From Candidatus Aenigmatarchaeota archaeon (GTDB lineage: Archaea > Aenigmatarchaeota > Aenigmatarchaeia > GW2011-AR5 > JACRAC01), in contig JACPJV010000009.1 of the NCBI GenBank assembly GCA_016187395.1, positions 1-63,114 of the forward strand: a DNA stretch of 63,114 nucleotides, written 5' to 3'. Positions 6,166 to 56,600 of this stretch are shown in pieces. The notes beneath the pieces were generated by a model. That model was given only the letters and a program-made list of their open reading frames with translations, did no database searches and was not told the origin of the DNA. Position 1 is the first letter of the stretch. Every line of letters begins with the position of its first letter. Both the position numbers and the translations under genes were made by a program.

Positions 6166-6465
6166 GTGATTCCGATGGTAAACTCGTCAACGTATGCCGA
6201 TATAATCCGCAAGGATGTTTTCACGACGAAAGGCGCATACTGCGGCAAGGTTGCCGATGTGGACCTGGATATGGAAAAGTTCCGCGTGAGGTCACTGGTT
6301 GTCGATGCGGTACGCGGCTCATTCCTTTCTGATATAGTCGGAGAAAAGAGAGGAGTCATAGTACCGTTCCAGATAGTGCAGGCAATCGGGGATATTATCA
6401 TAATAAAGCACATACACCCGACAGCTGCAGAAGAGGCTAACGCAGCAGAAGCAGAAGCTGCGTGA
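6166..6465 (+). CDS. PRC-barrel domain protein
   Basis: GAYCGKVADVDLDMEKFRVRSLVVD...GVIVPFQIVQAIGDIIII resembles a PRC barrel. TTTAAATAA box at 6134-6142. Possible starts are GTG 6166 and ATG 6175. Confidence 0.6.
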   Translation: MIPMVNSSTYADIIRKDVFTTKGAYCGKVADVDLDMEKFRVRSLVVDAVRGSFLSDIVGEKRGVIVPFQIVQAIGDIIIIKHIHPTAAEEANAAEAEAA

Positions 6466-6514
6466 ACGGGAAAAATTCTAAATAATTTCTGGAAGAGGGA
6501 AAAATATCGAAGAA

Positions 6515-6758
6515 ATATAGTGAAGCAAATAAATAAACCCGATATGATCATTTGCTTCCCATACAAGGAGGAACGAAGTTCCTCCTGTACAGCAGAAGCT
6601 TCGCTTCTGCTTGTAGAGTGAACCAAGATTTTTAGTCGGCATTGGTTTCTTGGTTCACTTTATAGTGAAACCACAAATGAAACGGAACATGTATTTGTGC
6701 TTTCCCATATAGCAAACCAACTCTGGTATGCCGTTTATTTAGTTGGTTTGCTATAAAC
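6515..6758. repeat. hairpin-array repeat element (six consecutive stem-loops)
   Basis: ATATAG-hp-CATACAAG-hp(GAGGAAC/GTTCCTC)-CTGTACAG-hp(CAGAAGC/GCTTCTG)-CTTGTAG-hp-TTATAG-hp-CATATAG-hp-CTATAAAC. It fills the gap between convergent genes. Confidence 0.75.
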
Positions 6759-6777
6759 TACAATCTTTGCCCCAGGG

Positions 6778-7239
6778 TTATTGCTGATTCTGGCCATTAC
6801 CGGCTGTTTCGCAAAGTTGTTCTGCAAATCTTAGATATGCAGGGTGTGTTCTGAACGCAGTCGGCTCCCAGATTGGAAATCTTGTACCGCTGTATTCATA
6901 CGTAAGATCGAATCTTTGCACGACTTCTGTGCGGTCTTCAACAAGAACGCCGTTTTCATAACGCTGCCAATCTACGCGCTGGAATATGTAAGGATTTCCG
7001 TCGCCCTCATCGTGGATGCGAAGATAGGATTTGGGTCCATAACCCGGGTCTACGACGTAGACCTTTCCTCTTTTCAAGTCCACTATCCCCCTGATCTTCT
7101 CGCCCGGTATTTTCATGCCGTCCGATAATTCTACAGGTGCCGGCATGGCGTTCTCAAATTCTTTTTCAGGGTAAAGGCGGCCAAACAGTGCCAGACATGC
7201 GACAGCTGCACCTATTATCAATACTTTTCTTGCCTGCAT
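6778..7239 (-). CDS. secreted or membrane-anchored hypothetical protein
   Basis: 153 aa with an N-terminal hydrophobic segment (VLIIGAAVACLALF). No known motif. Confidence 0.55.
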   Translation of the reverse strand: MQARKVLIIGAAVACLALFGRLYPEKEFENAMPAPVELSDGMKIPGEKIRGIVDLKRGKVYVVDPGYGPKSYLRIHDEGDGNPYIFQRVDWQRYENGVLVEDRTEVVQRFDLTYEYSGTRFPIWEPTAFRTHPAYLRFAEQLCETAGNGQNQQ

Positions 7240-7315
7240 GGAAGAAAGGACGATGTAAAGTTTTTATTGCTACTATAAACTGATTTCTCGTTTGCCAGCT
7301 CCGCAGCCATCATCC

Positions 7316-7323
7316 TTTATAAG
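7316..7323 (+). promoter_or_regulatory. TATA-box candidate for aEF-2
   Basis: TTTATAAG about 34 nt upstream of ATG 7354, consistent with a very short leader. Confidence 0.35.
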
Positions 7324-7353
7324 TTTATTTACAAACATAAACGTTGGTATATC

Positions 7354-9525
7354 ATGGCAAAGGATAAAACAGAATTAGTGAAAGAGCTGATGGAACAGCC
7401 GGAGAAGATACGTAATATCGGAATCGCTGCGCACATCGACCATGGAAAAACCACGCTTTCAGACAGCCTGATAGCAGGCGCCGGCATGATTTCAGAGGAG
7501 CTGGCTGGAAAGCAGCTGTTCATGGACTTCACAAAGCAGGAACAGGAACGCGGAATCACTATATGGGCGGCTAATGCAAGCATGGTTCATGATTATGAAA
7601 ATGGGAATTACCTGATAAACCTCATAGACACACCGGGGCATGTGGATTTTTCCGGCGATGTCACCAGGGCAATGAGGGCAGTTGACGGAGTTATAATCCT
7701 TGTTGACGCAGTCGAGAGCGTGATGCCGCAGACAGAAACGGTAATAAGGCAGGCACTGCGCGAGCGCGTTAAGCCAGTCTTGTTTATAAACAAGGTAGAC
7801 AGGCTTATCCGCGAGCTAAAGTTCACGCCAGAGCAGATGCAGAAGCGGTTTGAAAAAATCATCTCTGACGTAAACAGGCTTATCATAAAATATGCAGAGA
7901 AAGAGTTCGCAGAAAAGTGGATAGTGAAGGTGGACGACGGTTCTGTCGCATTCGGGTCAGGCTATCGAAAATGGGCGATATCGGTTCCTGCCATGAAAAA
8001 AATGCAGATAAGCTTCAAGGACATCATAACCTATACGCAGGAAGACAGGGAAAGGGAACTGTCCAAAAAAGCGCCTGTTCACCAGATTTTGCTGAACATG
8101 GTTATCAAGCATTTGCCTAACCCGCTGGATGCGCAGAAATACAGGATTCCAAAGATATGGAAAGGCGATTTAGAATCAGGCATAGGCAAGGATATGCTTT
8201 CCATGAATTCGAAAGGGGTGCTGGCAGGCGTTGTGACCAAGGTATTGCCGGATCCGCATGCAGGAATTGTGGCTACAGCAAGGCTCTTTTCAGGCGCGAT
8301 ATCCCGCGGACAGGAGGTGCGCCTTATAGGACAACACATGACAAGGCGTATACAGCAGGTGGCGATATACAAGGGCCCGCAAAGAGAACAGATGGAAACC
8401 ATATTTGCAGGCAACATAGTGGCAATAACAGGGATACCGGAGGCATATTCAGGAGAGACTATATGCGACCCAAGCATAGAAATGCACCCTTTCGAGGCGA
8501 TAAAGCATATATTCGAGCCTGTAGTCACGAAGAGCGTAGAGCCGAAAAGCCCACAGGACTTGCAAAAGATCATAAATTTCCTGCGCCAGGTTAGCAGGGA
8601 AGACCCGATGCTGGAAATTAACATCAACGAGGAAACAGGCGAGTATCTTGTTTCTGGACTAGGCGAATTGCATATAAACGCAAAGGTAGAAAGGCCGCTT
8701 TCTGAGATGGGCATAGAAATCAAGGTGTCACCACCCATTGTCGTTTACAGGGAGACGGTGGGCGGAAGAGGCCCTGTTGCAGAGGGAGTAAGCTCAAACA
8801 GGCATAACAGGTTCTATCTAAGCGTGGAACCTCTGGAGCCTGCAGTTTTAGAGGCTATAAACGAGGGCAAGATATCAACAGAGAACGTGAAAAAGAACGT
8901 AAAGGAGGTTACAAAGCAGCTCGTAGATTACGGCATGCCGAGGGATGAGGCAAAGAATATAGTCGACATCTACAACAAAAACGTCCTCGTCGATGCAACA
9001 AAAGGAATACAGTACCTTCATGAAACGATTGAGCTTATCACAGAGGCGTTCAGGAACACGGTGAAAAAGGGTCCGCAGTCAAACGAGCCATGCGTTGGGT
9101 TGAAAGTGCTTGTAAATGACGCAAAGCTGCACGAAGATGCGATACACAGAGGACCTGCGCAGGTGCTTCCAGCTGTGAGCGACTCCATCAGGCAGAGCAT
9201 GATGAGGGCAAAGCCCCTGATACTTGAACCTATCCAGGTAATACGCATAGACGTGCCTGAGGAGATCATGGGCGCAGCTATTTCGCAGGTGCAGAACAGG
9301 AGGGGGCAGGTTATTAACATGGAAACAGACCTGGGAACTTCCATGATAACTGCAAAGATGCCTGTTTCAGAAATGTTCGGGTTTGAGGCGCAATTAAAAA
9401 GCGCAACAGGCGGAAAAGGATTCTACTCGCTGATAGACGTGAAGTTTGAAAAGCTGCCGGGAGAGCTGCAACAAAATGTCATAAGCAAAATCAGGCAGAG
9501 GAAAGGACTGGCAGAGGGGCAGTAG
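7354..9525 (+). CDS. fusA: translation elongation factor aEF-2
   Basis: AHIDHGKTTLSD G1 motif, DTPGH, NKVDR, and the diphthamide-region HEDAIHRGPAQ. 723 aa. Confidence 0.97.
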   Translation: MAKDKTELVKELMEQPEKIRNIGIAAHIDHGKTTLSDSLIAGAGMISEELAGKQLFMDFTKQEQERGITIWAANASMVHDYENGNYLINLIDTPGHVDFSGDVTRAMRAVDGVIILVDAVESVMPQTETVIRQALRERVKPVLFINKVDRLIRELKFTPEQMQKRFEKIISDVNRLIIKYAEKEFAEKWIVKVDDGSVAFGSGYRKWAISVPAMKKMQISFKDIITYTQEDRERELSKKAPVHQILLNMVIKHLPNPLDAQKYRIPKIWKGDLESGIGKDMLSMNSKGVLAGVVTKVLPDPHAGIVATARLFSGAISRGQEVRLIGQHMTRRIQQVAIYKGPQREQMETIFAGNIVAITGIPEAYSGETICDPSIEMHPFEAIKHIFEPVVTKSVEPKSPQDLQKIINFLRQVSREDPMLEININEETGEYLVSGLGELHINAKVERPLSEMGIEIKVSPPIVVYRETVGGRGPVAEGVSSNRHNRFYLSVEPLEPAVLEAINEGKISTENVKKNVKEVTKQLVDYGMPRDEAKNIVDIYNKNVLVDATKGIQYLHETIELITEAFRNTVKKGPQSNEPCVGLKVLVNDAKLHEDAIHRGPAQVLPAVSDSIRQSMMRAKPLILEPIQVIRIDVPEEIMGAAISQVQNRRGQVINMETDLGTSMITAKMPVSEMFGFEAQLKSATGGKGFYSLIDVKFEKLPGELQQNVISKIRQRKGLAEGQ
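9487..9525 (+). repeat. direct repeat copy 1 (authentic aEF-2 3' end)
   Basis: The last 12 codons plus stop (KIRQRKGLAEGQ*) recur at 10060-10098 with 34/39 identity. Confidence 0.9.
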
Positions 9526-9568
9526 AAGTGCGAAGGATAAACACCGAAGAAGTGAACCGGTGATTTTC

Positions 9569-9823
9569 ATGCCTTACGAAATTATCGTGAAAGAGCCTGC
9601 AGAAAGGAAGCTGAGAAAATTCCCGAAGGATATACAGCGCAGATTTGCAAAACGCGCGGAAAAGCTGGCGGAAAACCCGCATTCATTCGGCAAGCCTTTG
9701 AGGAATGTTCTGGCAGGCTATTGGGAAGATTACTTCGAAAGAAGATTCCGCATAATTTATACTATTGACGAAAATTCAAAAACTATTACTATAGAAGCCA
9801 TAAAGCACAAGGATGAATTCTAG
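9569..9823 (+). CDS. RelE/ParE-family toxin
   Basis: AERKLRKFPKDIQRRFAKRAEKLAENP...RFRIIYTIDENSKTITIEAIKHKDEF. GGTGA lies before ATG 9569. The track start is GTG 9560. Confidence 0.7.
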   Translation: MPYEIIVKEPAERKLRKFPKDIQRRFAKRAEKLAENPHSFGKPLRNVLAGYWEDYFERRFRIIYTIDENSKTITIEAIKHKDEF

Positions 9824-10005
9824 AGCCCGAGCTCTTTCCTCACTTCTTTCCAAGGTCTGCCCTTGGAAGTTTTGGATTCCTTGATTTGTTCCATAAGTTC
9901 CTTATCACCCAGAATTTCTATAGTTCTCTGCATACTCTCGTACTCGTCTTTGGAAATAACAACATAGCTAGTTTCATGCCTACCTTTTTCCATCAGCACA
10001 GACAT
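9820..10005 (-). CDS. Phd/YefM-family antitoxin
   Basis: VVISKDEYESMQRTIEILGDKELMEQIKES is a typical Phd/YefM core. GGTGA SD and a TTTAAAT box lie upstream on the minus strand. Confidence 0.7.
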   Translation of the reverse strand: MSVLMEKGRHETSYVVISKDEYESMQRTIEILGDKELMEQIKESKTSKGRPWKEVRKELGL

Positions 10006-10059
10006 GGCATCACCGAACTAATAAATAGGCAAACTGATTTAAATTGATTTGTATCCCGA

Positions 10060-10098
10060 AAAATCAGGCAGAGGAAGGGGCTGGCAGAAGGACAGTAA
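10060..10098 (+). repeat. direct repeat copy 2 (orphan aEF-2 3' end)
   Basis: Encodes the identical KIRQRKGLAEGQ* peptide. All 5 differences from 9487-9525 are synonymous, including TAG to TAA. Confidence 0.9.
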
Positions 10099-10174
10099 CT
10101 TTAGTATTCTTCGGCATTTAGATATCTTTGAAGGAAAGGCTTAATTTATTGCTGTTTTTGAAGAAAAGCCAACG

Positions 10175-10184
10175 TTTAAATATA
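10175..10184 (+). promoter_or_regulatory. TATA-box candidate for aEF-1alpha
   Basis: TTTAAATATA about 35 nt upstream of ATG 10219. An AGGTG SD lies 6 nt before the ATG. Confidence 0.4.
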
Positions 10185-10218
10185 TTACTATCATACGTTT
10201 GTGAGTGAAGGTGTAAAT

Positions 10219-17835: not shown

Positions 17836-17977
17836 ATGTAGTGGTCTACATGTAATCTTCGAAAGAACTCCAATTAAAACCTCTGACTTCAGTCAGAGGA
17901 TAAAATACCGAGTTCTTTCGAGATGCTTTGCTTCAAGAAACCGCAGGCTTTAGCCTGCGGTTCATATGGAAGCAAAT
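17836..17977. repeat. nested-hairpin repeat element downstream of ndk
   Basis: ATGTAG/CTACAT hairpin, then TCGAAAGAACT[..CCTCTGAC ttca GTCAGAGG ATAAAATACCG]AGTTCTTTCGA, then TTGCTTC[..CCGCAGGC ttta GCCTGCGG..]GAAGCAA. Confidence 0.6.
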
Positions 17978-19903: not shown

Positions 19904-20551
19904 ATGACGAGTGGGACGTATCCGCTTTTTGATAAATTGACAGGCGACTACGCCTTCTACAGGGAACAGAGTGACTTGATGACAAAAGTTTTTCCAGAAG
20001 GACAGCGAATATTAAGCCTCGGAGATGGGTTTGGGAATGTCTCCAGAATGCTGGCTACCAGATGCAGTGTTGTCGACGTTGATATAGATAATGAGGCATG
20101 CAGATACATAAGGAAAAAGGACGGGAAAATCGCGGTCGTAAGAGGAAATGTTCACTACCTTCCTTTTGCTGATAGTGCTTTCGACGGCGCAGTATGCCCC
20201 AGCAATTTCGGAGTTTTTCAAGAACGAAAGTTTCTCTACGAAACTGCACGAGTGCTGAGGATAGGTGCGTTGCTTTCAGTAACAGGATTTAACAGGGAAA
20301 AGATGCAAGGAGTATCGGTAAAAAACATACTTCCAGAACTAGAGCGACGAGCGCGAAGAGTTTTGTCAGAAGAGGAATTATGGATATTACCGTTGTATCT
20401 GGAGGGAGTCAGAGAAAGGTTTGAGTGTATGAATTTGGAACCGTCTATAGGTGAGGTGATGTCTTTACTGAAGTCAGCTGGATTCTCTATCCAAGACACC
20501 TCTTCTTTTCACAGAGGATATAACTGGCATGCCGTGGCCGAAAGGAAGTGA
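19904..20551 (+). CDS. class I SAM-dependent methyltransferase-like protein
   Basis: ILSLGDGFGNVSRMLA (motif I-like), VVDVDIDNEA, and LPFADSAFDGAV. Moderately degenerate. Confidence 0.6.
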   Translation: MTSGTYPLFDKLTGDYAFYREQSDLMTKVFPEGQRILSLGDGFGNVSRMLATRCSVVDVDIDNEACRYIRKKDGKIAVVRGNVHYLPFADSAFDGAVCPSNFGVFQERKFLYETARVLRIGALLSVTGFNREKMQGVSVKNILPELERRARRVLSEEELWILPLYLEGVRERFECMNLEPSIGEVMSLLKSAGFSIQDTSSFHRGYNWHAVAERK

Positions 20552-20554
20552 TAA

Positions 20555-20704
20555 TGTGAAACAAGGAAATAATACCGACATGTCCTTGTTTCACATTATA
20601 CAAGCAGAACCATTCGGGTTCTGCTGTACAGCAGGAGCTCTGCTCCTGCTTGTAGTGCACAAGGAATTATCATATCCCGATTTATTCCTTGTAGCACTAT
20701 AAAA
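20555..20704. repeat. hairpin-array repeat element, copy related to 45177-45325
   Basis: 13-bp perfect stem TGTGAAACAAGGA/TCCTTGTTTCACA, then TACAAG-CAGAACC/GGTTCTG-CTGTACAG-CAGGAGC/GCTCCTG-CTTGTAG, then stem TGCACAAGGA/TCCTTGTAGCA and CTATAAAA. It starts 4 nt after a stop codon. Confidence 0.85.
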
Positions 20705-22657: not shown

Positions 22658-22746
22658 ACAGAATTATTCATTCGATTCTTTCCAGGGCAAACAAATAGGC
22701 TTTTAAATCTTGCTTACCTTGAGTCAGAAAGGTGCATGCATGTTTC

Positions 22747-22795
22747 GTGGGAAGAGCGAAGCTCTTCCACGTCCAGAAGAGCCAGCAGCTCTTCT
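22747..22795. repeat. double GC-rich hairpin module upstream of rps6e
   Basis: GGAAGAGC gaa GCTCTTCC and AGAAGAGC cagca GCTCTTCT separated by 6 nt. These are the same purine-arm/pyrimidine-arm stem type as the other repeat loci. Confidence 0.55.
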
Positions 22796-22828
22796 TAGAT
22801 CATGCAGGAAAACGTGAGGTGTGTTTCG

Positions 22829-23339: not shown

Positions 23340-23939
23340 ATGGATATAGAACAACTAGGCAATTCCACCTCTGTTATAAGATTTGACGGCTGGCATTTTG
23401 CGCCTGTTGCAAGGAAAATTAAGGAAATTTTGCGCGAACGTCCTGACGCGGCTTTGCAATACGGTGATATTGTGATGGCGAGACTTGAAGCTGAAGAGCT
23501 GGATGTTGGCGAATTCGAGATAGGCACGAGATTTGGAGAGGGCCTGGCACTTGTAAATCTAGAATCAGGAGAGAGCGTTGTTTCACCTTCTGAAGGACAG
23601 ATGGATATCAGGAGGTACAGTGCGCAATTTGCACGGAAATACAAATGGAGCGATGTAAATTTCCGCGTTCTGGTTCCCGAAAGAAAGGGCATGATATATG
23701 TTGCTCATGATATTCCTGGAAGAAGCGATAGGACGTTTGTTCAATGGGCATATCACGCTCACGGTAGAGAGGCAGAAGAGATTCTCTCGGACGCAGAGTA
23801 CGGAATGTTTCAAGTATCGGGTAAACCTGTCCTTAATCTTGCCAATCTTATAAGAGGGGAACGCGCCTTTCTTATGGGAGAAGTGCTTATTGGGGCGACC
23901 GGTATTTACAGAGAGATTCCTAGAGGAAAATCTATCTAA
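23340..23939 (+). CDS. ORFan, paralog A of the pair flanking aIF2-gamma
   Basis: Shares LDVGEFEIGT, RRYSAQFARKY, RVLVPE..G.IYV, DIPGRSD..FVQW and YREIPRG blocks with 25396..25974. Confidence 0.6.
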   Translation: MDIEQLGNSTSVIRFDGWHFAPVARKIKEILRERPDAALQYGDIVMARLEAEELDVGEFEIGTRFGEGLALVNLESGESVVSPSEGQMDIRRYSAQFARKYKWSDVNFRVLVPERKGMIYVAHDIPGRSDRTFVQWAYHAHGREAEEILSDAEYGMFQVSGKPVLNLANLIRGERAFLMGEVLIGATGIYREIPRGKSI

Positions 23940-25395: not shown

Positions 25396-25974
25396 ATGCT
25401 ATCAAACCAAGCTAGTGTTGTGAGTCTGGATGAACTGGAGTTAAAGCCCTATATAGTAATTGGGCGAAAGCTTGTGCATGGAGCGCCTAGACTAGCCTTT
25501 GTATTAGGAAAGCTTGTTCTGGTTGGAATTAGAGGCGAAAGGCTGGATGTTGGCGAATTTGAAACAGGCACGATGGAAAGAGAGGTAGAAATAGCAAGAC
25601 GAACTCGGGGAGAAGATTATTTAATGGATGTTTCATATGGACAACCTGTTGTAAGAAGACATAGAGCACGATACGCAAGAAGGTATATGGATGGATTTGA
25701 TGATGAAACTAGGGTACTGGTTCCACAAGACGATGGTCGGATATATGTTGTGCAGAATATACCACGCAGGCCTGACCATTTCGTGCAATGGGATGATTAT
25801 TCCCATGATCCTGAAAAGGAAAGGGTTCTTGACAGTGCTGATTGCGCGATATTTCTAGCGACTAATGCTTCTATAATGCCTTTGGTCGCACTTGTAGGCA
25901 AATCTCACGCCTTGTTTTTGCATAGGGGTTCAGGTTCAGGTGGAAGTTACAGAGAGCTTAATAGGAGAAACTAA
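25396..25974 (+). CDS. ORFan, paralog B of the pair flanking aIF2-gamma
   Basis: LDVGEFETGT, RRHRARYARRY, RVLVPQDDGRIYV, NIPRRPDHFVQW and YRELNRR align with 23340..23939. Confidence 0.6.
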   Translation: MLSNQASVVSLDELELKPYIVIGRKLVHGAPRLAFVLGKLVLVGIRGERLDVGEFETGTMEREVEIARRTRGEDYLMDVSYGQPVVRRHRARYARRYMDGFDDETRVLVPQDDGRIYVVQNIPRRPDHFVQWDDYSHDPEKERVLDSADCAIFLATNASIMPLVALVGKSHALFLHRGSGSGGSYRELNRRN

Positions 25975-28068: not shown

Positions 28069-28104
28069 AACCTCCTGCATAACCTCCCCTTTCAGGAGCT
28101 TTCT
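28069..28104. repeat. perfect 36-bp direct repeat, distal copy
   Basis: AACCTCCTGCATAACCTCCCCTTTCAGGAGCTTTCT is identical to 28812-28847. Confidence 0.95.
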
Positions 28105-28158: not shown

Positions 28159-28386
28159 ATGACGAACATGACTCTGGCAGTTCCTGAAGACCTGAAAGAG
28201 GCGATGGACAGGCACAAGGAAGTCAGGTGGAGCGAGATAGCAAGGCAGGCGATGTGGGAGCATGCACGAAAGCTAGAACTGATGGACAAGCTTCTTGCAA
28301 AGAGCAGGCTGACCGAGAAAGACGCAGAGGAATTGGGCCATAAAATAAAGCATGGAATTGCAAGGAGACACGGGCTGGTAAAATGA
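28159..28386 (+). CDS. VapB-like antitoxin
   Basis: MTLAVPEDLKEAMDRHKEVRWSEIARQA pattern. 4-nt ATGA overlap with the PIN gene. Confidence 0.6.
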   Translation: MTNMTLAVPEDLKEAMDRHKEVRWSEIARQAMWEHARKLELMDKLLAKSRLTEKDAEELGHKIKHGIARRHGLVK

Positions 28387-28805
28387 AAATCGTGGTGGAT
28401 ACGAACAGAATAATAGCAGCTTTAGTCAAAGACAGCACAACGCGGGAAATCCTGTTCGACAGAAATTTTGAGTTTGTAACACCAGACCATACTATAAAGG
28501 AAGTATACGAGCATAAAGACGAATTGAAGGTCAAAACAAATCTCAGCAATGAAGAATTTGACATCCTCATGGCATTTATTTTCGAGCGCATTGAGATTAT
28601 CCCAGAATCAGATTACAGGGATTTTATGGAAGAATGCAGGAATGATATAAGTGATCCGGATGATGTGCCGATTCTTGCTGCGGCTGTCGCCATCAAAACC
28701 GATGGCATATGGGCGCATGACCCTCATTTCAGAGAACAAAACAAGATAAAGGTATTTACGAATATAGACATGCTGAGATTCAGTGGCCGAATGAAATCAG
28801 GTTGA
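28383..28805 (+). CDS. PIN-domain toxin
   Basis: KIVVDTNRIIAAL ... DPDDVPILAAAVA ... DGIWAHDPHF, the acidic residues of the PIN fold. Confidence 0.75.
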   Translation: MKIVVDTNRIIAALVKDSTTREILFDRNFEFVTPDHTIKEVYEHKDELKVKTNLSNEEFDILMAFIFERIEIIPESDYRDFMEECRNDISDPDDVPILAAAVAIKTDGIWAHDPHFREQNKIKVFTNIDMLRFSGRMKSG

Positions 28806-29105
28806 TTACTTAACCTCCTGCATAACCTCCCCTTTCAGGAGCTTTCTCTGGAGGCCCAGGATGAGAAGCTCTGCATCATTATCGCTATAGCCCAACTTTT
28901 TCAGGATCTTTATTCCTTCCGGCAATATTTTGGCGGATACGTTCTTCGACAGCTGGGGATCAAAGGAGAAGAAAGTGGCTTCGAAAGGTATTTTTTCCTC
29001 CAGTTGCATTTCACCGCGCATGGTTATGACGTTGTTTCCATAAGGCGCGAAGCCCTTGACGTAAACGGCGAAATCAGGGACAGGCATGATATCAGCTGAA
29101 ATCAT
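28806..29105 (-). CDS. hypothetical protein whose 3' end is the cassette target
   Basis: 99-aa ORF. Its last 14 codons include repeat copy 28812-28847. Confidence 0.5.
   Translation of the reverse strand: MISADIMPVPDFAVYVKGFAPYGNNVITMRGEMQLEEKIPFEATFFSFDPQLSKNVSAKILPEGIKILKKLGYSDNDAELLILGLQRKLLKGEVMQEVK
28812..28847. repeat. perfect 36-bp direct repeat, gene-proximal copy
   Basis: Identical to 28069-28104. On the minus strand it encodes RKLLKGEVMQEV of ORF 28806..29105. Confidence 0.95.
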
Positions 29106-29984: not shown

Positions 29985-30188
29985 CCACCGCCTACAATGC
30001 GAATCGAAGATTCGCATGTACAGAAGGAATCTTTGATTCCTTCTTGTAAAGGCGGTGGTTTCACAAGGTCTTCAGCACAAGGAGAAGCGAGCTTCTCCTG
30101 TGCAGGAGGAACTTCGTTCCTCCTTGCATGCCAAAGAAGTTCGGTATCTTATCCTCTGCCTAAAGGCAGAGGGTTTAGAACTTCTTTG
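29985..30188. repeat. hairpin-array repeat element between rnp3 and rnp2
   Basis: CCACCGCC-TACAA-hp-TGTACAG-hp-CTTGTA-aa-GGCGGTGG, then CACAAG-hp-CTGTGCAG-hp-CTTGCA, then nested CAAAGAAGTT[CGGTATCTTAT CCTCTGCC taaa GGCAGAGG]AACTTCTTTG. Confidence 0.7.
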
Positions 30189-30247: not shown

Positions 30248-30604
30248 ATGGAACCTAAAAGACTCCCGCCAAGCCTTCGCGCAAAATCGCGATACGTCAT
30301 CTTCGAAGTGATAAGCGAAGGAAAGGTTGTTTTCGAGGATGTAACGAAGGCTATTTGGAATGCTGTCACAGAATGGCTTGGGGAGATGGGAAGCAGCGAG
30401 GCAAGGCTGTGGATAGTCAAAAATCTGTACAGCGACAGCAAACAGATAGGAGTGATAAAATGCGCTCATGACAGGGTGGAGCACATTCGCGTTTCTCTTG
30501 CGCTTGTGAAGATGACAGGAGAAACACGGGCTATAATCAGGGTTATCGGCGTGACAGGAACTATAAAGGCAGCACAGCTGAAGTATCTGGAGGCAGGGAA
30601 GTGA
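30248..30604 (+). CDS. rnp2: RNase P protein component 2 (Pop5)
   Basis: LPPSLRAKSRYVIFEV N-terminal signature. 118 aa. Confidence 0.8.
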   Translation: MEPKRLPPSLRAKSRYVIFEVISEGKVVFEDVTKAIWNAVTEWLGEMGSSEARLWIVKNLYSDSKQIGVIKCAHDRVEHIRVSLALVKMTGETRAIIRVIGVTGTIKAAQLKYLEAGK

Positions 30605-41410: not shown

Positions 41411-41491
41411 TAAGAATTTATGTTTCTCACAATTTAAATACCAGCGTGTGCTGGTATTAACTTAAACTACTATACTGTAGTAAATATATAG

Positions 41492-45176: not shown

Positions 45177-45325
45177 TTTATAGTGCTACAAGGAATAAAT
45201 CGGGATATAATAATTCCTTGTGCACTACAAGCAGGAGCAGAGCTCCTGCTGTACAGCAGAACTCGGAGAGTTCTGCCTGTATACTGTGAAACAAGGATAT
45301 GCCGGTATTATTTCCTCGTTTCACA
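45177..45325. repeat. hairpin-array repeat element, inverted copy of 20555-20704
   Basis: The reverse complement aligns almost base for base with 20555-20704. The CAGAACC/GGTTCTG arm is replaced by CAGAACTC/GAGTTCTG. It abuts the ALDH stop codon. Confidence 0.85.
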
Positions 45326-46858
45326 TTAAGGGATATTTTTTCCATAAACAACTCTATGCCAGGGCTTTCTTGCCCTGCCCGATTGGTCTATGTAGACGTG
45401 CTTTATGTTCGTGTATTCTTCTAATGAAAAAATAGATAGGTCTTTGCCAAAGCCGCTCTGCTTGTAACCGCCATGAGGCATCTCGCTGACAAGCACGCCA
45501 TGCTCGTTGAGCCACACTGTGCCGAAGCGCAGCTGCGCAGCAAGGCGCATCGCCTGCGTGATATCACGACCCCAGACGCTTGCCGCCAGGCCGTAAATCA
45601 CGTCATTAGCCTCTTCAACAGCCTGCTCGAGATTTTCGTAAGTCAGGATAGTTAGTACAGGGCCAAATATTTCCTCCTGGCATATTTTCATACTCTGCTT
45701 TGCATTTGTGAAAATGGTCGGCATCAAGTACGCGCCCTTTTCAAAAAATTTGCCTTTCGGTCTTGTGCCACCATAGATTAATTTCGCATTTTGCTGGACG
45801 CCTGATTTGATATAGCCTTCCACTCTGTCCCTCTGGCGCATGCTCACAAGCGGACCCATATCGGTGTTGTAATTAAGCGGATCACCAATTCTGAATTTGC
45901 GAACTTCTGCAATGAGTTTTTTCACAAAGGAATCATGCTGTTTTTTATGAATAAACACGCGCGTAACAGCTGTGCAGTCCTGGCCTGTGTTCCAGAATGC
46001 TCCTGCTGCTGCGCCTTTTGCTGCTGCATCCAAATCAGCGTCGGACATGACTATCATCGGCGCCTTGCCGCCGAGCTCCAAATGCAATCTTTTCACATTC
46101 GCGCTTGACGCCTGCATTATCTTCCTCCCTGTCGATGTGTCGCCGGTCATCGCTATCATGTCTATCTTTGTGTTTTCCGCAATAGCCGCGCCCACGATAT
46201 CGCCCGGCCCTGTCACTACATTCAGCGCGCCTTTTGGCAATCCTGCCTTTTCCGCAAGCTTTGCAAACTCAAGCAGCGTGAGTGGCGTGTAGCTTGCCGG
46301 CTTGACAACCAAGGTATTACCAGCTGCAAGCGCAGGCGCCATCTGCCATGTAGCGATGTAAAGCGGATAATTCCAAGGCACTATACAACCAATAACGCCA
46401 ATAGGCTCGCGGCGGATGATGCTTGTTCCGAGTGCAGCATGGCGCCCTTTTTTGCTGTAATCTGCGTATTCGTATGTGGATTCGCCGAGAAGGACACGGG
46501 TAAGCCCTGCAAAGTAGCGCCAGTTGTCGATGATGAACGGAAAATCAGATTCCGTGGCATAGCGTATGCTTTTGCCGACATTCGTTGCCTCGAGCCGCGC
46601 AAGACGGCTAAGATTTTTCTCAATTAAGTCGGCAATCTTCCAGAGAACCGAGGCACGCTCGGCTGGGGTCACCTGTGGCCAATGACCTTTGTCAAATGCG
46701 GTGCGGGCTGCATCCGCTGCCTTGCGTACGTCTTCTTTTGTACCTTTCGGGACTTTTGCTATTATGCGGGAATTTGCAGGATTTACGACACTGTAAAATT
46801 CGCCGGATTCAGAATTGCACCACCGGCCATTTATGTACATCTTGCAGACAGAAGGCAT
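45326..46858 (-). CDS. NAD(P)-dependent aldehyde dehydrogenase
   Basis: WNYPL, LELGGKAP and FWNTGQDCTA catalytic-Cys context. 510 aa. Confidence 0.9.
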   Translation of the reverse strand: MPSVCKMYINGRWCNSESGEFYSVVNPANSRIIAKVPKGTKEDVRKAADAARTAFDKGHWPQVTPAERASVLWKIADLIEKNLSRLARLEATNVGKSIRYATESDFPFIIDNWRYFAGLTRVLLGESTYEYADYSKKGRHAALGTSIIRREPIGVIGCIVPWNYPLYIATWQMAPALAAGNTLVVKPASYTPLTLLEFAKLAEKAGLPKGALNVVTGPGDIVGAAIAENTKIDMIAMTGDTSTGRKIMQASSANVKRLHLELGGKAPMIVMSDADLDAAAKGAAAGAFWNTGQDCTAVTRVFIHKKQHDSFVKKLIAEVRKFRIGDPLNYNTDMGPLVSMRQRDRVEGYIKSGVQQNAKLIYGGTRPKGKFFEKGAYLMPTIFTNAKQSMKICQEEIFGPVLTILTYENLEQAVEEANDVIYGLAASVWGRDITQAMRLAAQLRFGTVWLNEHGVLVSEMPHGGYKQSGFGKDLSIFSLEEYTNIKHVYIDQSGRARKPWHRVVYGKNIP

Positions 46859-56534: not shown

Positions 56535-56600
56535 TGTGAGCAGGAGCAAAGCTCCTGCTACACAGCAAGAGCTTCGCTCTTGCTTGTGCCGCAGCACAAG
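56535..56600. repeat. triple-hairpin repeat module inside the operon
   Basis: TGTGAGCAGGAGC aaa GCTCCTGCT(A)CACA, GCAAGAGC ttcg CTCTTGC and TTGTGC cgca GCACAA. Same stem types as the other loci. Confidence 0.55.

Follow-up and report, generated by a model that had tools for sequence, protein, structure and literature searches.

A miniature mobile element built of paired hairpins in Aenigmatarchaeota and other DPANN archaea

Contig JACPJV010000009.1 of a Candidatus Aenigmatarchaeota archaeon (assembly GCA_016187395.1), analysed over its whole stretch of 63,114 nt and referred to here as the window, contains twice, in opposite orientations, an array of hairpins about 150 nt long, located once behind a methyltransferase gene and once behind an aldehyde dehydrogenase (ALDH) gene. 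What kind of element is this, and how did it come to occupy both sites? Both arrays are probably copies of a non-autonomous hairpin element of the MITE type (a miniature transposable element with inverted repeats), mobilised in trans and belonging to a large family of Aenigmatarchaeota and other DPANN archaea, as indicated by dispersed near-identical copies, a covarying architecture, insertion polymorphism, filled and empty sites, a bias towards spacers and the obligate pairing of hairpins. The two copies are as follows.

20552-20703, plus strand: copy A, a composite element found by repeat search and by its core (E = 1.8e-11), comprising the long hairpin L1 (20552-20598, TAATGTG..CACATTA), the core (20599-20654), the long hairpin L2 (20655-20699) and a terminal TAAA extending to 20703
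45177-45328, minus strand: copy B, in the orientation opposite to A, with its core at 45226-45281 (E = 4.7e-10)

A repeat search of the window matches the two copies over 152 nt with 93% complementary arms, and in the pairwise alignment their identity begins sharply at TAATGTGAAAC and ends after GCACTATAAA, with unrelated flanks. Each copy is predicted to fold into four hairpins. In copy A these are a long hairpin (20551-20599), whose TGTGAAACAAGGA stem extends to 19 pairs with an arm of 20 nt, two short hairpins (20599-20654) joined by TACAAG/CTGTACAG/CTTGTA, and a second long hairpin with the ACAAGGAAT stem (20659-20692). The predicted energy is -75.9 kcal/mol (z = -11.6) on the plus strand and -75.3 kcal/mol (z = -11.0) on the minus strand, and none of 200 shuffled sequences folded equally well. 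Eleven differences separate A and B in total. Where copy A has CAGAACC..GGTTCTG, copy B has CAGAACTC..GAGTTCTG, a C-G pair being changed to T-A and one C-G pair added; besides this compensated change, two differences yield G.T wobbles (AACAAGG to AACGAGG and TACAAG to TACAGG), one (CACATTA to CACAGTA) breaks a pair in the foot of L1, and the remaining ones are confined to loops and to the edge of a stem next to its loop. Copy A begins at the base immediately following the methyltransferase stop codon TGA (20549-20551), and the ALDH stop codon TAA (45328-45326) constitutes the initial three bases of copy B. Copy B has a terminal TATAAA (45182-45177) that precedes the permease start codon ATG (45155) by 27 to 22 nt, which would be a plausible position for the archaeal TATA box of a leaderless permease mRNA.

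An earlier sequence-only reading of the window had described an oppositely oriented pair of arrays, the individual parts, a compensated change in the CAGAACC/GGTTCTG stem and the proximity of both copies to stop codons, and the comparison of the two copies agrees with it on each of these points, all named parts (the two long stems, the linked double hairpin and the terminal GCACTATAAA) being present. The terminal motif GC(A/T)AC given there has to be corrected, since both copies read GCACTATAAA instead, and the count of two copies was too low: five more loci of the family are found in the window (6522-6755, 29985-30058, 30076-30128, 56535-56588 and the weak 22744-22799).

The invariant core of the family is an inverted pair of bulged hairpins, [TA]CAAG-S1-CTG[TA]CAG-S2-CTTG[TA], or, with its linkers, TACAAG-S1-CTGTACAG-S2-CTTGTA; the bulge is an A in one hairpin and a T in the other. 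This core can move by itself, as a unit of about 50 nt plus 2, between two long hairpins, as in the 150-nt form, whose ends read TTATAG...CTATAA in most relatives, or nested in the loop of a long hairpin, and the units of the family span 50-235 nt. In many metagenome-assembled genomes (MAGs) the 150-nt unit consists of TTATAG, a long hairpin, TA, the core, TA, a second long hairpin and CTATAA. A ATCCGGATAT-like motif is enriched in the loops of the long hairpins (18 of 71, against 1.8 expected). The two hairpins of the core form an obligate pair, as evidenced by 83 perfect pairs, 28 pairs with one degenerate half and not a single singleton; the absence of singletons rules out a single hairpin as the unit.

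A covariance model, designated R2, was built from 18 unique 54-nt cores. In the seed alignment 98.9% of cells are paired, with 75 double-sided changes and one G.U-type change. Among 114 distinct sequences the corresponding values are 97.7% paired, 616 double-sided changes and about 20 G.U cells, in an alignment that was fitted to the model and is therefore biased towards the structure. The almost purely Watson-Crick covariation, together with nearly equal R2 scores of each window core on both strands, indicates that the hairpins are palindromes at the DNA level. The end dinucleotides of 26 cores whose ends the search pattern left free were TA/TA in 14 cases, TG/TG in 7, CA/CA in 3 and discordant in 3, and in every concordant core other than TA the central dinucleotide, read from the sequences, is the complement. 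This covariation of the end and central dinucleotides points to two bulged hairpins sharing the central dinucleotide rather than to an outer closing helix, and places the flanking dinucleotides in the paired feet.

The distribution of the family was assessed by a linker-only scan, in which species-representative genomes were searched with the three linkers while the stems were left free. At least 96 archaeal matches were obtained, nearly all of which form stems of 6-9 bp on both hairpins, with many different sequences; a few of the matches listed carry one degenerate stem. The at least 9 bacterial matches form essentially no stems, as chance predicts. Among the matches listed, the archaeal ones nearly all bear DPANN labels and come mainly from MAGs labelled, as deposited, Aenigmat-, Woese-, Pace- or Nanoarchaeota, "archaeon" or "uncultured Methanosarcinales." The core was not found in IMG/VR viral contigs. 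None of the Rfam 15 covariance models matched the window at gathering thresholds, nor did any match at permissive thresholds beyond chance; the element itself gave only chance-level matches to microRNA hairpins (E = 0.06-0.5).

Relatives of the window were inspected as loci numbered from L001 upward, in stretches of at most 22 kb, amounting to about 0.9 Mb from about 40 genomes. The R2 model gave 221 strand-hits over 676 kb of these loci, often several per locus; as both strands score, this corresponds to about half as many loci. Such scanning had been proposed in the sequence-only reading, and the further copies found in the window and in related MAGs dispose of the possibility, raised there, that no others exist. 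In the MAG CAZMXQ01, units of about 130 nt recur many times in near-identical form where the surroundings are unrelated, some of them as tandem dimers, and the 150-nt units of other MAGs are 94-97% identical. A different repeat of about 206 nt abuts a dimer of the hairpin element in this MAG, which is labelled 'Methanosarcinales'; it forms an inverted pair about 3 kb apart in L029 (3523-3730 and 6740-6946) and occurs also in L104 and L079.

The window itself comes, judging by EF-2, from an Aenigmatarchaeote and thus from a DPANN archaeon: the best homologues of its EF-2 are 76-81% identical, and the named ones among the 120 matches listed are almost all Aenigmatarchaeota or Aenigmarchaeota, with one "archaeon." The relatives share the gene order EF-2, EF-1alpha ... 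NDK, aIF5B ... S6e, aIF2gamma. The spacers of the closest one (L109, EF-2 81% identical) are too diverged for alignment with those of the window. A scan of metagenomes for relatives of the aIF5B gene yielded no empty site for copy A, and an exact scan with the S2 pattern found only one contig, which is unrelated. Two Logan contigs carrying the window's methyltransferase (L001 from SRR12113424 and L002 from SRR12113420) both stop 29 nt into copy A, which suggests that the element fragments assemblies of the window organism, as assemblers break likewise at repeats.

Mobility is evidenced by filled and empty sites. Loci L111 and L112 are contigs of two samples with identical EF-2 and 99.4-99.9% identity over 18 kb, and L112 differs by one 113-nt insertion with perfect 14-bp inverted ends, a nested core and a CA duplicated on either side, where the empty site of L111 reads GTCG-CA-GAAG. 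The insertion is located 9 nt before the stop codon of RNA polymerase A'' and changes the C terminus from ...ASQKK* to ...ASQK*. In paralogous anticodon-loop introns of tRNA-Pro the empty site AAGTT-TA-ATCAA (L070, L037) is matched by the filled AAGTT-TA-[50-nt core]-TA-ATCAA (L008, L107). A host repeat in L067 is present in one intact copy (GCGC-TA-CCGG) and one split by a core with TA on each side. Finally, the long-hairpin loops GTAA-TA-TCC are empty in L004, L012 and L027 and carry a complete core at the TA in L020, L076, L070 and L107. The junction identity is thus 2 nt in all four unambiguous comparisons, three with TA and one, L112, with CA; in a comparison at the EF-2 end of L111 the junction is ambiguous between 2 and 4 nt (TG or CC). 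Three other candidate pairs were discarded, L057/L098 differing by a coding indel and L013/L066 and L113/L114 by runs of N.

The element hence inserts at a dinucleotide, usually TA, that is afterwards present on both sides, a target-site duplication that in the filled/empty pairs is indistinguishable from crossover at a shared 2-nt core. It is mobile and currently active in Aenigmatarchaeota and other DPANN archaea. Some junctions bear a relation to the host sequence. The outer 10 nt of the L112 insert exactly repeat host sequence 18 nt upstream, with an inverted copy at the other end, and the hairpin arms in L111 encode mimics of the displaced native C termini (PREA* for PKEA* and TTREFVSR for KPKEFVKR). 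A permutation test of flank-to-arm similarity was weakly positive overall.

Copies are located predominantly in spacers and at the ends of genes. Among 84 scorable cores, 83 lie outside long open reading frames (ORFs), though about 78% of the sequence is covered by ORFs. Flanking genes are tandem in 46 cases, convergent in 23 and divergent in 14, against a background of 396, 144 and 117, respectively; such near-background orientation argues against a dedicated role at gene 3' ends. In-frame copies are rare (about 2 of about 110). In L108 (Ga0315284_10016619) a lone core (6837-6892) sits in frame in a cysteine-desulfurase-like ORF (6250-7485, minus strand), lengthening it by 18 codons (NTSRSKAPAVQAESEIPP) that lie just upstream of SSHK, the pyridoxal-phosphate lysine motif, and one core of L051 also lies within an ORF. 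At gene ends the element supplies the stop codon, as for the window ALDH, the RNA polymerase A'' of L112 and the EF-2 and NDK of L111. Spacers and tRNA introns are thus the places in which copies survive, along with rare in-frame positions within genes and the very 3' end of a gene, to which their A/T-rich termini give a stop codon. The terminal TATAAA may serve as a TATA box for the downstream gene, for example the permease next to copy B, and hairpins co-transcribed with a gene may affect mRNA 3' ends.

The tRNA-Pro(UGG) genes of Aenigmatarchaeota-type MAGs contain long introns, apparently more than one per gene, that hold hairpin elements; ARAGORN missed these intron-rich tRNAs in default mode and found them in intron mode. 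Such loci are c[916-1170] and c[1446-1662] in L008, c[381-1800] in L037, 3280-3420 in L070 and a position at about 5193 in L107. A composite element of about 165 nt is present within a second tRNA-like gene of L037. Sites of this sort are also taken by a second, different double-hairpin family (CTYGAAGTTGAGC..GCTCAACTTRAG, then TCGCCRAAGRA..), in the c[1446-1662] intron of L008 and at about 6960-7030 in L066.

If the element is mobilised in trans, an enzyme encoded elsewhere in the genome would read no long sequence but the feet of the folded hairpins. Recognition of the feet would account for two features, upper stems that vary freely yet stay perfectly Watson-Crick and flanking dinucleotides that change together with the central dinucleotide. 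Ranked highest are an IS630/Tc1-like DDE transposase, which would make a 2-bp staggered cut, and a recombinase of the IS607 (serine) or IS110 type, which would cross over at a 2-nt core; either would fit the 2-nt junction. A hairpin-specific HUH-Y1 enzyme, resembling the systems of repetitive extragenic palindrome (REP) doublets, known as REPINs, and REP-associated tyrosine transposases (RAYTs), would come next as the main alternative, and template switching at replication without a dedicated enzyme would be third, kept in play by the 10-nt host repeat of L112 and the C-terminus mimics of L111.

Searches for the enzyme covered both the window and its relatives. Pfam analysis of about 80 window ORFs revealed no transposase, integrase, HUH, Y1_Tnp or DDE_3-type domain, BLAST clustering of 885 ORFs found no recurrent protein family beside the arrays, and Pfam found neither a recurrent family nor Y1_Tnp among 150 flanking ORFs. 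The inspected stretches of relatives likewise showed no DDE_3-type domain. A RAYT/IS200-like or other transposase, suggested as a target by the sequence-only reading, was therefore neither found in the window nor recurrent among the flanking ORFs. The lack of a recurrent neighbouring ORF indicates that the element carries no gene. No autonomous insertion sequence (IS) with the same ends was detected in the window or the related loci, and long-range inverted repeats enclosing an autonomous element gave nothing convincing. The inverted pair of the 206-nt repeat in L029 was rejected as such an element, as it encloses a permease-like ORF and two ORFs that are not transposase-like by appearance. 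A GIY-YIG nuclease gene by tRNA-Pro was likewise dismissed as a linked enzyme, being present in L037 and L008 only. This 83-aa GIY-YIG-like ORF (MFYVYVLKC..., named by its sequence signature; L037 903-1151 and L008 1159-1395, both on the minus strand) adjoins tRNA-Pro, and in L037 also a separate long palindrome (GACGTGAGAG...CTCTAGCTGAC...).

Several observations weigh against trans-mobilisation as outlined above. No mobilising enzyme was found in the window ORFs or recurrently near the arrays, in the parts of about 40 genomes that were inspected (about 0.9 Mb). The host repeat of L112 and the arm mimicry of L111 hint at a templated or homology-guided step, which simple cut-and-paste does not predict. 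Departures from TA at the junction, to CA in one case and to TG or CC in another, set the element apart from strict IS630/Tc1 elements, and the termini of the mobile unit vary (CAAG.., TAG.., AAAATGAATTTGAC..), which is awkward for a transposase that binds terminal inverted repeats (TIRs) by sequence.

Other explanations were weighed as well. In one of them, modelled on REP/REPIN-RAYT systems, the doublet would be an archaeal analogue of a REPIN, and a domesticated HUH-Y1 (IS200-like) nuclease, encoded by a single-copy gene, would read the foot and bulge of the hairpin and cut and paste the doublet in single-stranded form at replication forks. The obligate inverted doublet of short imperfect palindromes corresponds to the definition of REPINs (PMC6006769, PMC3116915), the conserved foot has an extrahelical base below a free upper stem, and foot pairing is kept, flanking dinucleotide included. 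The wide phylogenetic spread with no linked gene is like that of vertically inherited REPIN-RAYT systems (10.1101/2021.07.10.451892), and IS200-type TnpA is known from archaea (PMC6006769). However, neither GT[AG]G nor CGTC is conserved as a 5' tag at the feet (TACAAG/CTGTA and TATAG/CTATA), the composites with their true TIRs and the identical dinucleotides at either side of an insertion depart from what IS200/IS605 elements show, the window and flanking ORFs yielded no Y1_Tnp domain, and the RAYT classes reported so far are from bacteria only (PMC6006769), so that this explanation appears unlikely, if worth keeping in view. Still less probable is an origin of the hairpins at replication, by microhomology-mediated template switching at stalled forks (fold-back and between loci), with no transposase and with the 2-nt junctions as microhomologies. 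Recopying of one arm from the other is expected to produce Watson-Crick-only stems and coordinated multi-site changes; the L112 insert, opening with a host repeat and closing with its inverted copy, the L111 arms resembling displaced gene ends and the failure to find an enzyme in the window and flanking ORFs are all in its favour. Yet a 2-nt junction in four of four unambiguous comparisons, with TA predominant, is more regular than usual microhomology, the flank-to-arm similarity is only weakly positive overall, the linker motif is conserved across phyla, implying a factor that reads sequence, and the many near-identical full-length copies look like faithful transposition.

Hairpins that evolved in place at 3' ends as host RNA elements, acting as terminators, mRNA stabilisers or processing sites, are very improbable as the primary nature of the family. 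Several window copies do abut stop codons, the folding is very stable, and bacterial REP-like elements have such secondary roles (PMC3733652). Against this, orientation is irrelevant, with both strands scoring equally, divergent spacers are occupied at the background rate, copies are present in tRNA introns and in frame in coding sequence, presence/absence polymorphism exists between near-identical strains, G.U pairs are nearly absent, and no Rfam family matches. A terminator or stabiliser role, entertained in the sequence-only reading, is accordingly not what defines the element. There is also a small chance of a mechanism new to mobile DNA. Recognition of the folded feet of the 50-nt double hairpin would then be due to an enzyme that reads structure or to a process coupled to replication, which would need pairing between the flanking and central dinucleotides and would build part of the outer stems from the target flank.

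Compared with known systems, the element works like a MITE and has the layout of a REPIN or of a bacterial interspersed mosaic element (BIME). Three of the four defining features of a generic MITE were found: a short (below about 500 bp) non-coding sequence dispersed in multiple copies, TIRs and target-site duplication. The TIRs are the perfect 14-bp ends of the L112 insert, TTATAG..../....CTATAA in composites and CAAG.../...CTTG in the core. MITEs mobilised in trans by IS630/Tc1-mariner transposases include Sulfolobus SM1 with ISC1048, the Neisseria Correia elements and plant Stowaway. Like these, the present element is small, gene-less, multi-copy and biased to intergenic sites, has TIRs and duplicates a mostly TA dinucleotide; these MITEs, too, can donate promoter-like or stop sequences, and the double hairpin has 5'-CA...TG-3' ends. 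Unlike them, its minimal unit is only about 50 nt long, with conserved feet and a central palindrome in place of transposase-binding TIRs of 20-30 bp, its stems vary yet stay paired, its modules are nested or serial in many combinations, its duplicated dinucleotide can be CA or TG, and the loci inspected contain no related autonomous IS. ISC1048 and MITEs are mentioned for Sulfolobus in PMC3718332, and small bacterial mobile repeats are reviewed in PMC2229807.

With the REP/RAYT systems described in bacteria (PMC3733652, PMC6006769, PMC3116915), including BIMEs and REPINs, the element shares short imperfect palindromes arranged as inverted doublets or mosaics, many copies in spacers, often after stop codons, the general lack of a linked gene, several subfamilies per genome and occasional copies within genes. 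It differs in having no GT[AG]G/CGTC tag, in its dinucleotide duplication and composite TIRs, in its archaeal hosts and in that no RAYT was seen in the inspected loci; GTAG occurs only incidentally, where CTTGTA precedes G. Of the REP/BIME- or MITE-like nature suggested by the sequence-only reading, the dispersed, structured, non-coding, multi-copy and mobile character therefore stands, while strict membership in REP, which would call for the conserved GT[AG]G tag, does not.

Palindrome-associated transposable elements (PATEs) derived from IS200/IS605 have asymmetric ends without TIRs and insert 3' of a fixed tetranucleotide without duplication. An assignment to this class was rejected, as the element is symmetric, scoring equally on both strands, and has TIRs and the same dinucleotide on both sides. 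Integron attC sites are single imperfect palindromes with R''/R' boxes that follow each cassette ORF in co-oriented arrays, with IntI in the vicinity. This reading was rejected as well: no R''/R' boxes (RYYYAAC / GTTRRRY) were recognised by eye, both orientations occur, the flanks are syntenic housekeeping genes, and the window encodes no integrase domain. Rickettsia palindromic elements are 100-150 bp long and carry a CGTC tag. They are palindromic mini-elements that can likewise sit in frame without destroying the ORF, to be compared with the 18 codons in L108; PMC3733652 mentions them. In-frame copies of the present element, unlike theirs, are rare. To our knowledge, neither a 2-nt junction rule nor a CTGTACAG-like linker palindrome is known for the double-hairpin elements of mitochondria. 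These fungal and algal elements and palindromic mini-repeats, cited in PMC7218506, PMC4478555 and PMC5910586, resemble the present one in having two adjacent hairpins as the mobile unit and in inserting into spacers and one another, and differ in being organellar and of unrelated sequence. Searches of the literature turned up no account of this motif, nor any of MITEs from the DPANN phyla in question, in line with the sequence-only reading, which knew of no archaeal description with such an architecture, and the family seems not to have been described before.

In the window the R2 scan located six strong cores, with E values between 2e-14 and 2e-9 (6562, 20599, 29993, 30076, 45226 and 56535), besides a weak one at 22744 (E = 0.004), a density of about one per 10 kb (6-7 cores in 63 kb). 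The central double hairpin thus recurs across the window with different stem sequences, and all cores sit in short spacers, abutting a stop or start codon. The loci other than copies A and B are the following.

6522-6755, no strand: six-hairpin array of the same family with different stems (core E = 1.9e-14), comprising a long hairpin (6522-6558), the core (6562-6615) and three long hairpins (6614-6662, 6667-6704 and 6708-6755)
22744-22799, no strand: weak degenerate double hairpin (CGTGGGAAGAGC..GCTCTTCCACG, AGAAGAGC..GCTCTTCT; E = 0.004)
29985-30058, no strand: core 29993-30048 nested in an outer 8-bp stem (CCACCGCC / GGCGGTGG; E = 1.3e-10)
30076-30128, no strand: second core in the spacer behind the RNase P p30 gene, linkers CACAAG/CTGTGCAG/CTTGCA (E = 2e-10)
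56535-56588, no strand: solitary core without long hairpins, linkers TGTGAG/CTACACAG/CTTGTG (TG/CA/TG; E = 2e-09)

The array at 6522-6755 occupies the spacer of two convergent genes and is about 75% identical to elements of other MAGs. The nested core has the RNase P p30 gene on one side of its spacer and the following plus-strand ORF (30248-30604) on the other, and its neighbour at 30076-30128 has compensated end, centre and end dinucleotides (CA/TG/CA). The solitary core is located 10 nt past the stop codon of one ORF and 20 nt ahead of the start codon of the next. The degenerate double hairpin stops 3 nt ahead of the S6e start codon and is probably an old copy. Two short GC-rich hairpins in the NDK-aIF5B spacer (17878-17901 and 17939-17962), with stems of 9-10 bp and 4-nt loops, do not match the core model; hairpins resembling them are present at 30151-30174 and 41435-41460.

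Other repeats of the window are associated with cassette-like arrangements. The last 38 nt of the EF-2 gene (9487-9524) are repeated with 89% identity at 10060-10097, 573 nt downstream, in the spacer 9525-10200. The repeat brackets a small RelE/ParE-like ORF (9560-9823, plus strand) and a Phd/YefM-like ORF (9820-10005, minus strand), both named by eye, and the whole has the appearance of a toxin-antitoxin cassette that went in at the 3' end of EF-2 and left a long duplication of the target or att site. In a second cassette-like insertion, a direct repeat of 36 nt without mismatches (28069-28104 and 28812-28847), itself a hairpin (CTCCTG..CAGGAG), brackets a PIN_2 toxin gene (28383-28805) with 280 nt upstream of it, an arrangement reminiscent of attC-bounded cassettes. 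The ORFs 23340-23939 and 25396-25974, which flank the aIF2-gamma gene, have no Pfam match and may be paralogues; a 60-nt stretch is 75% identical between them (23470-23529 and 25514-25573).

The element rewrites gene 3' ends, giving new stop codons and C termini to genes as essential as those of EF-2, NDK and RNA polymerase A'', and probably fragments metagenome assemblies. Its unusual rules, under which two inverted hairpins are obligately paired, stems covary by Watson-Crick pairs only and three dinucleotides change together, provide a handle for finding the mobilising enzyme, possibly a new hairpin-reading recombinase with potential as a tool. If the mechanism were indeed structure-reading and target-templated, the core would be the smallest self-defined mobile unit known from cellular genomes and a source of new hairpins and gene 3' ends in DPANN archaea. 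The R2 covariance model can serve as a marker for annotating DPANN genomes with the element. Genomes of DPANN archaea are streamlined and very small, and this family supplies abundant miniature elements common to MAGs labelled as several of their phyla.

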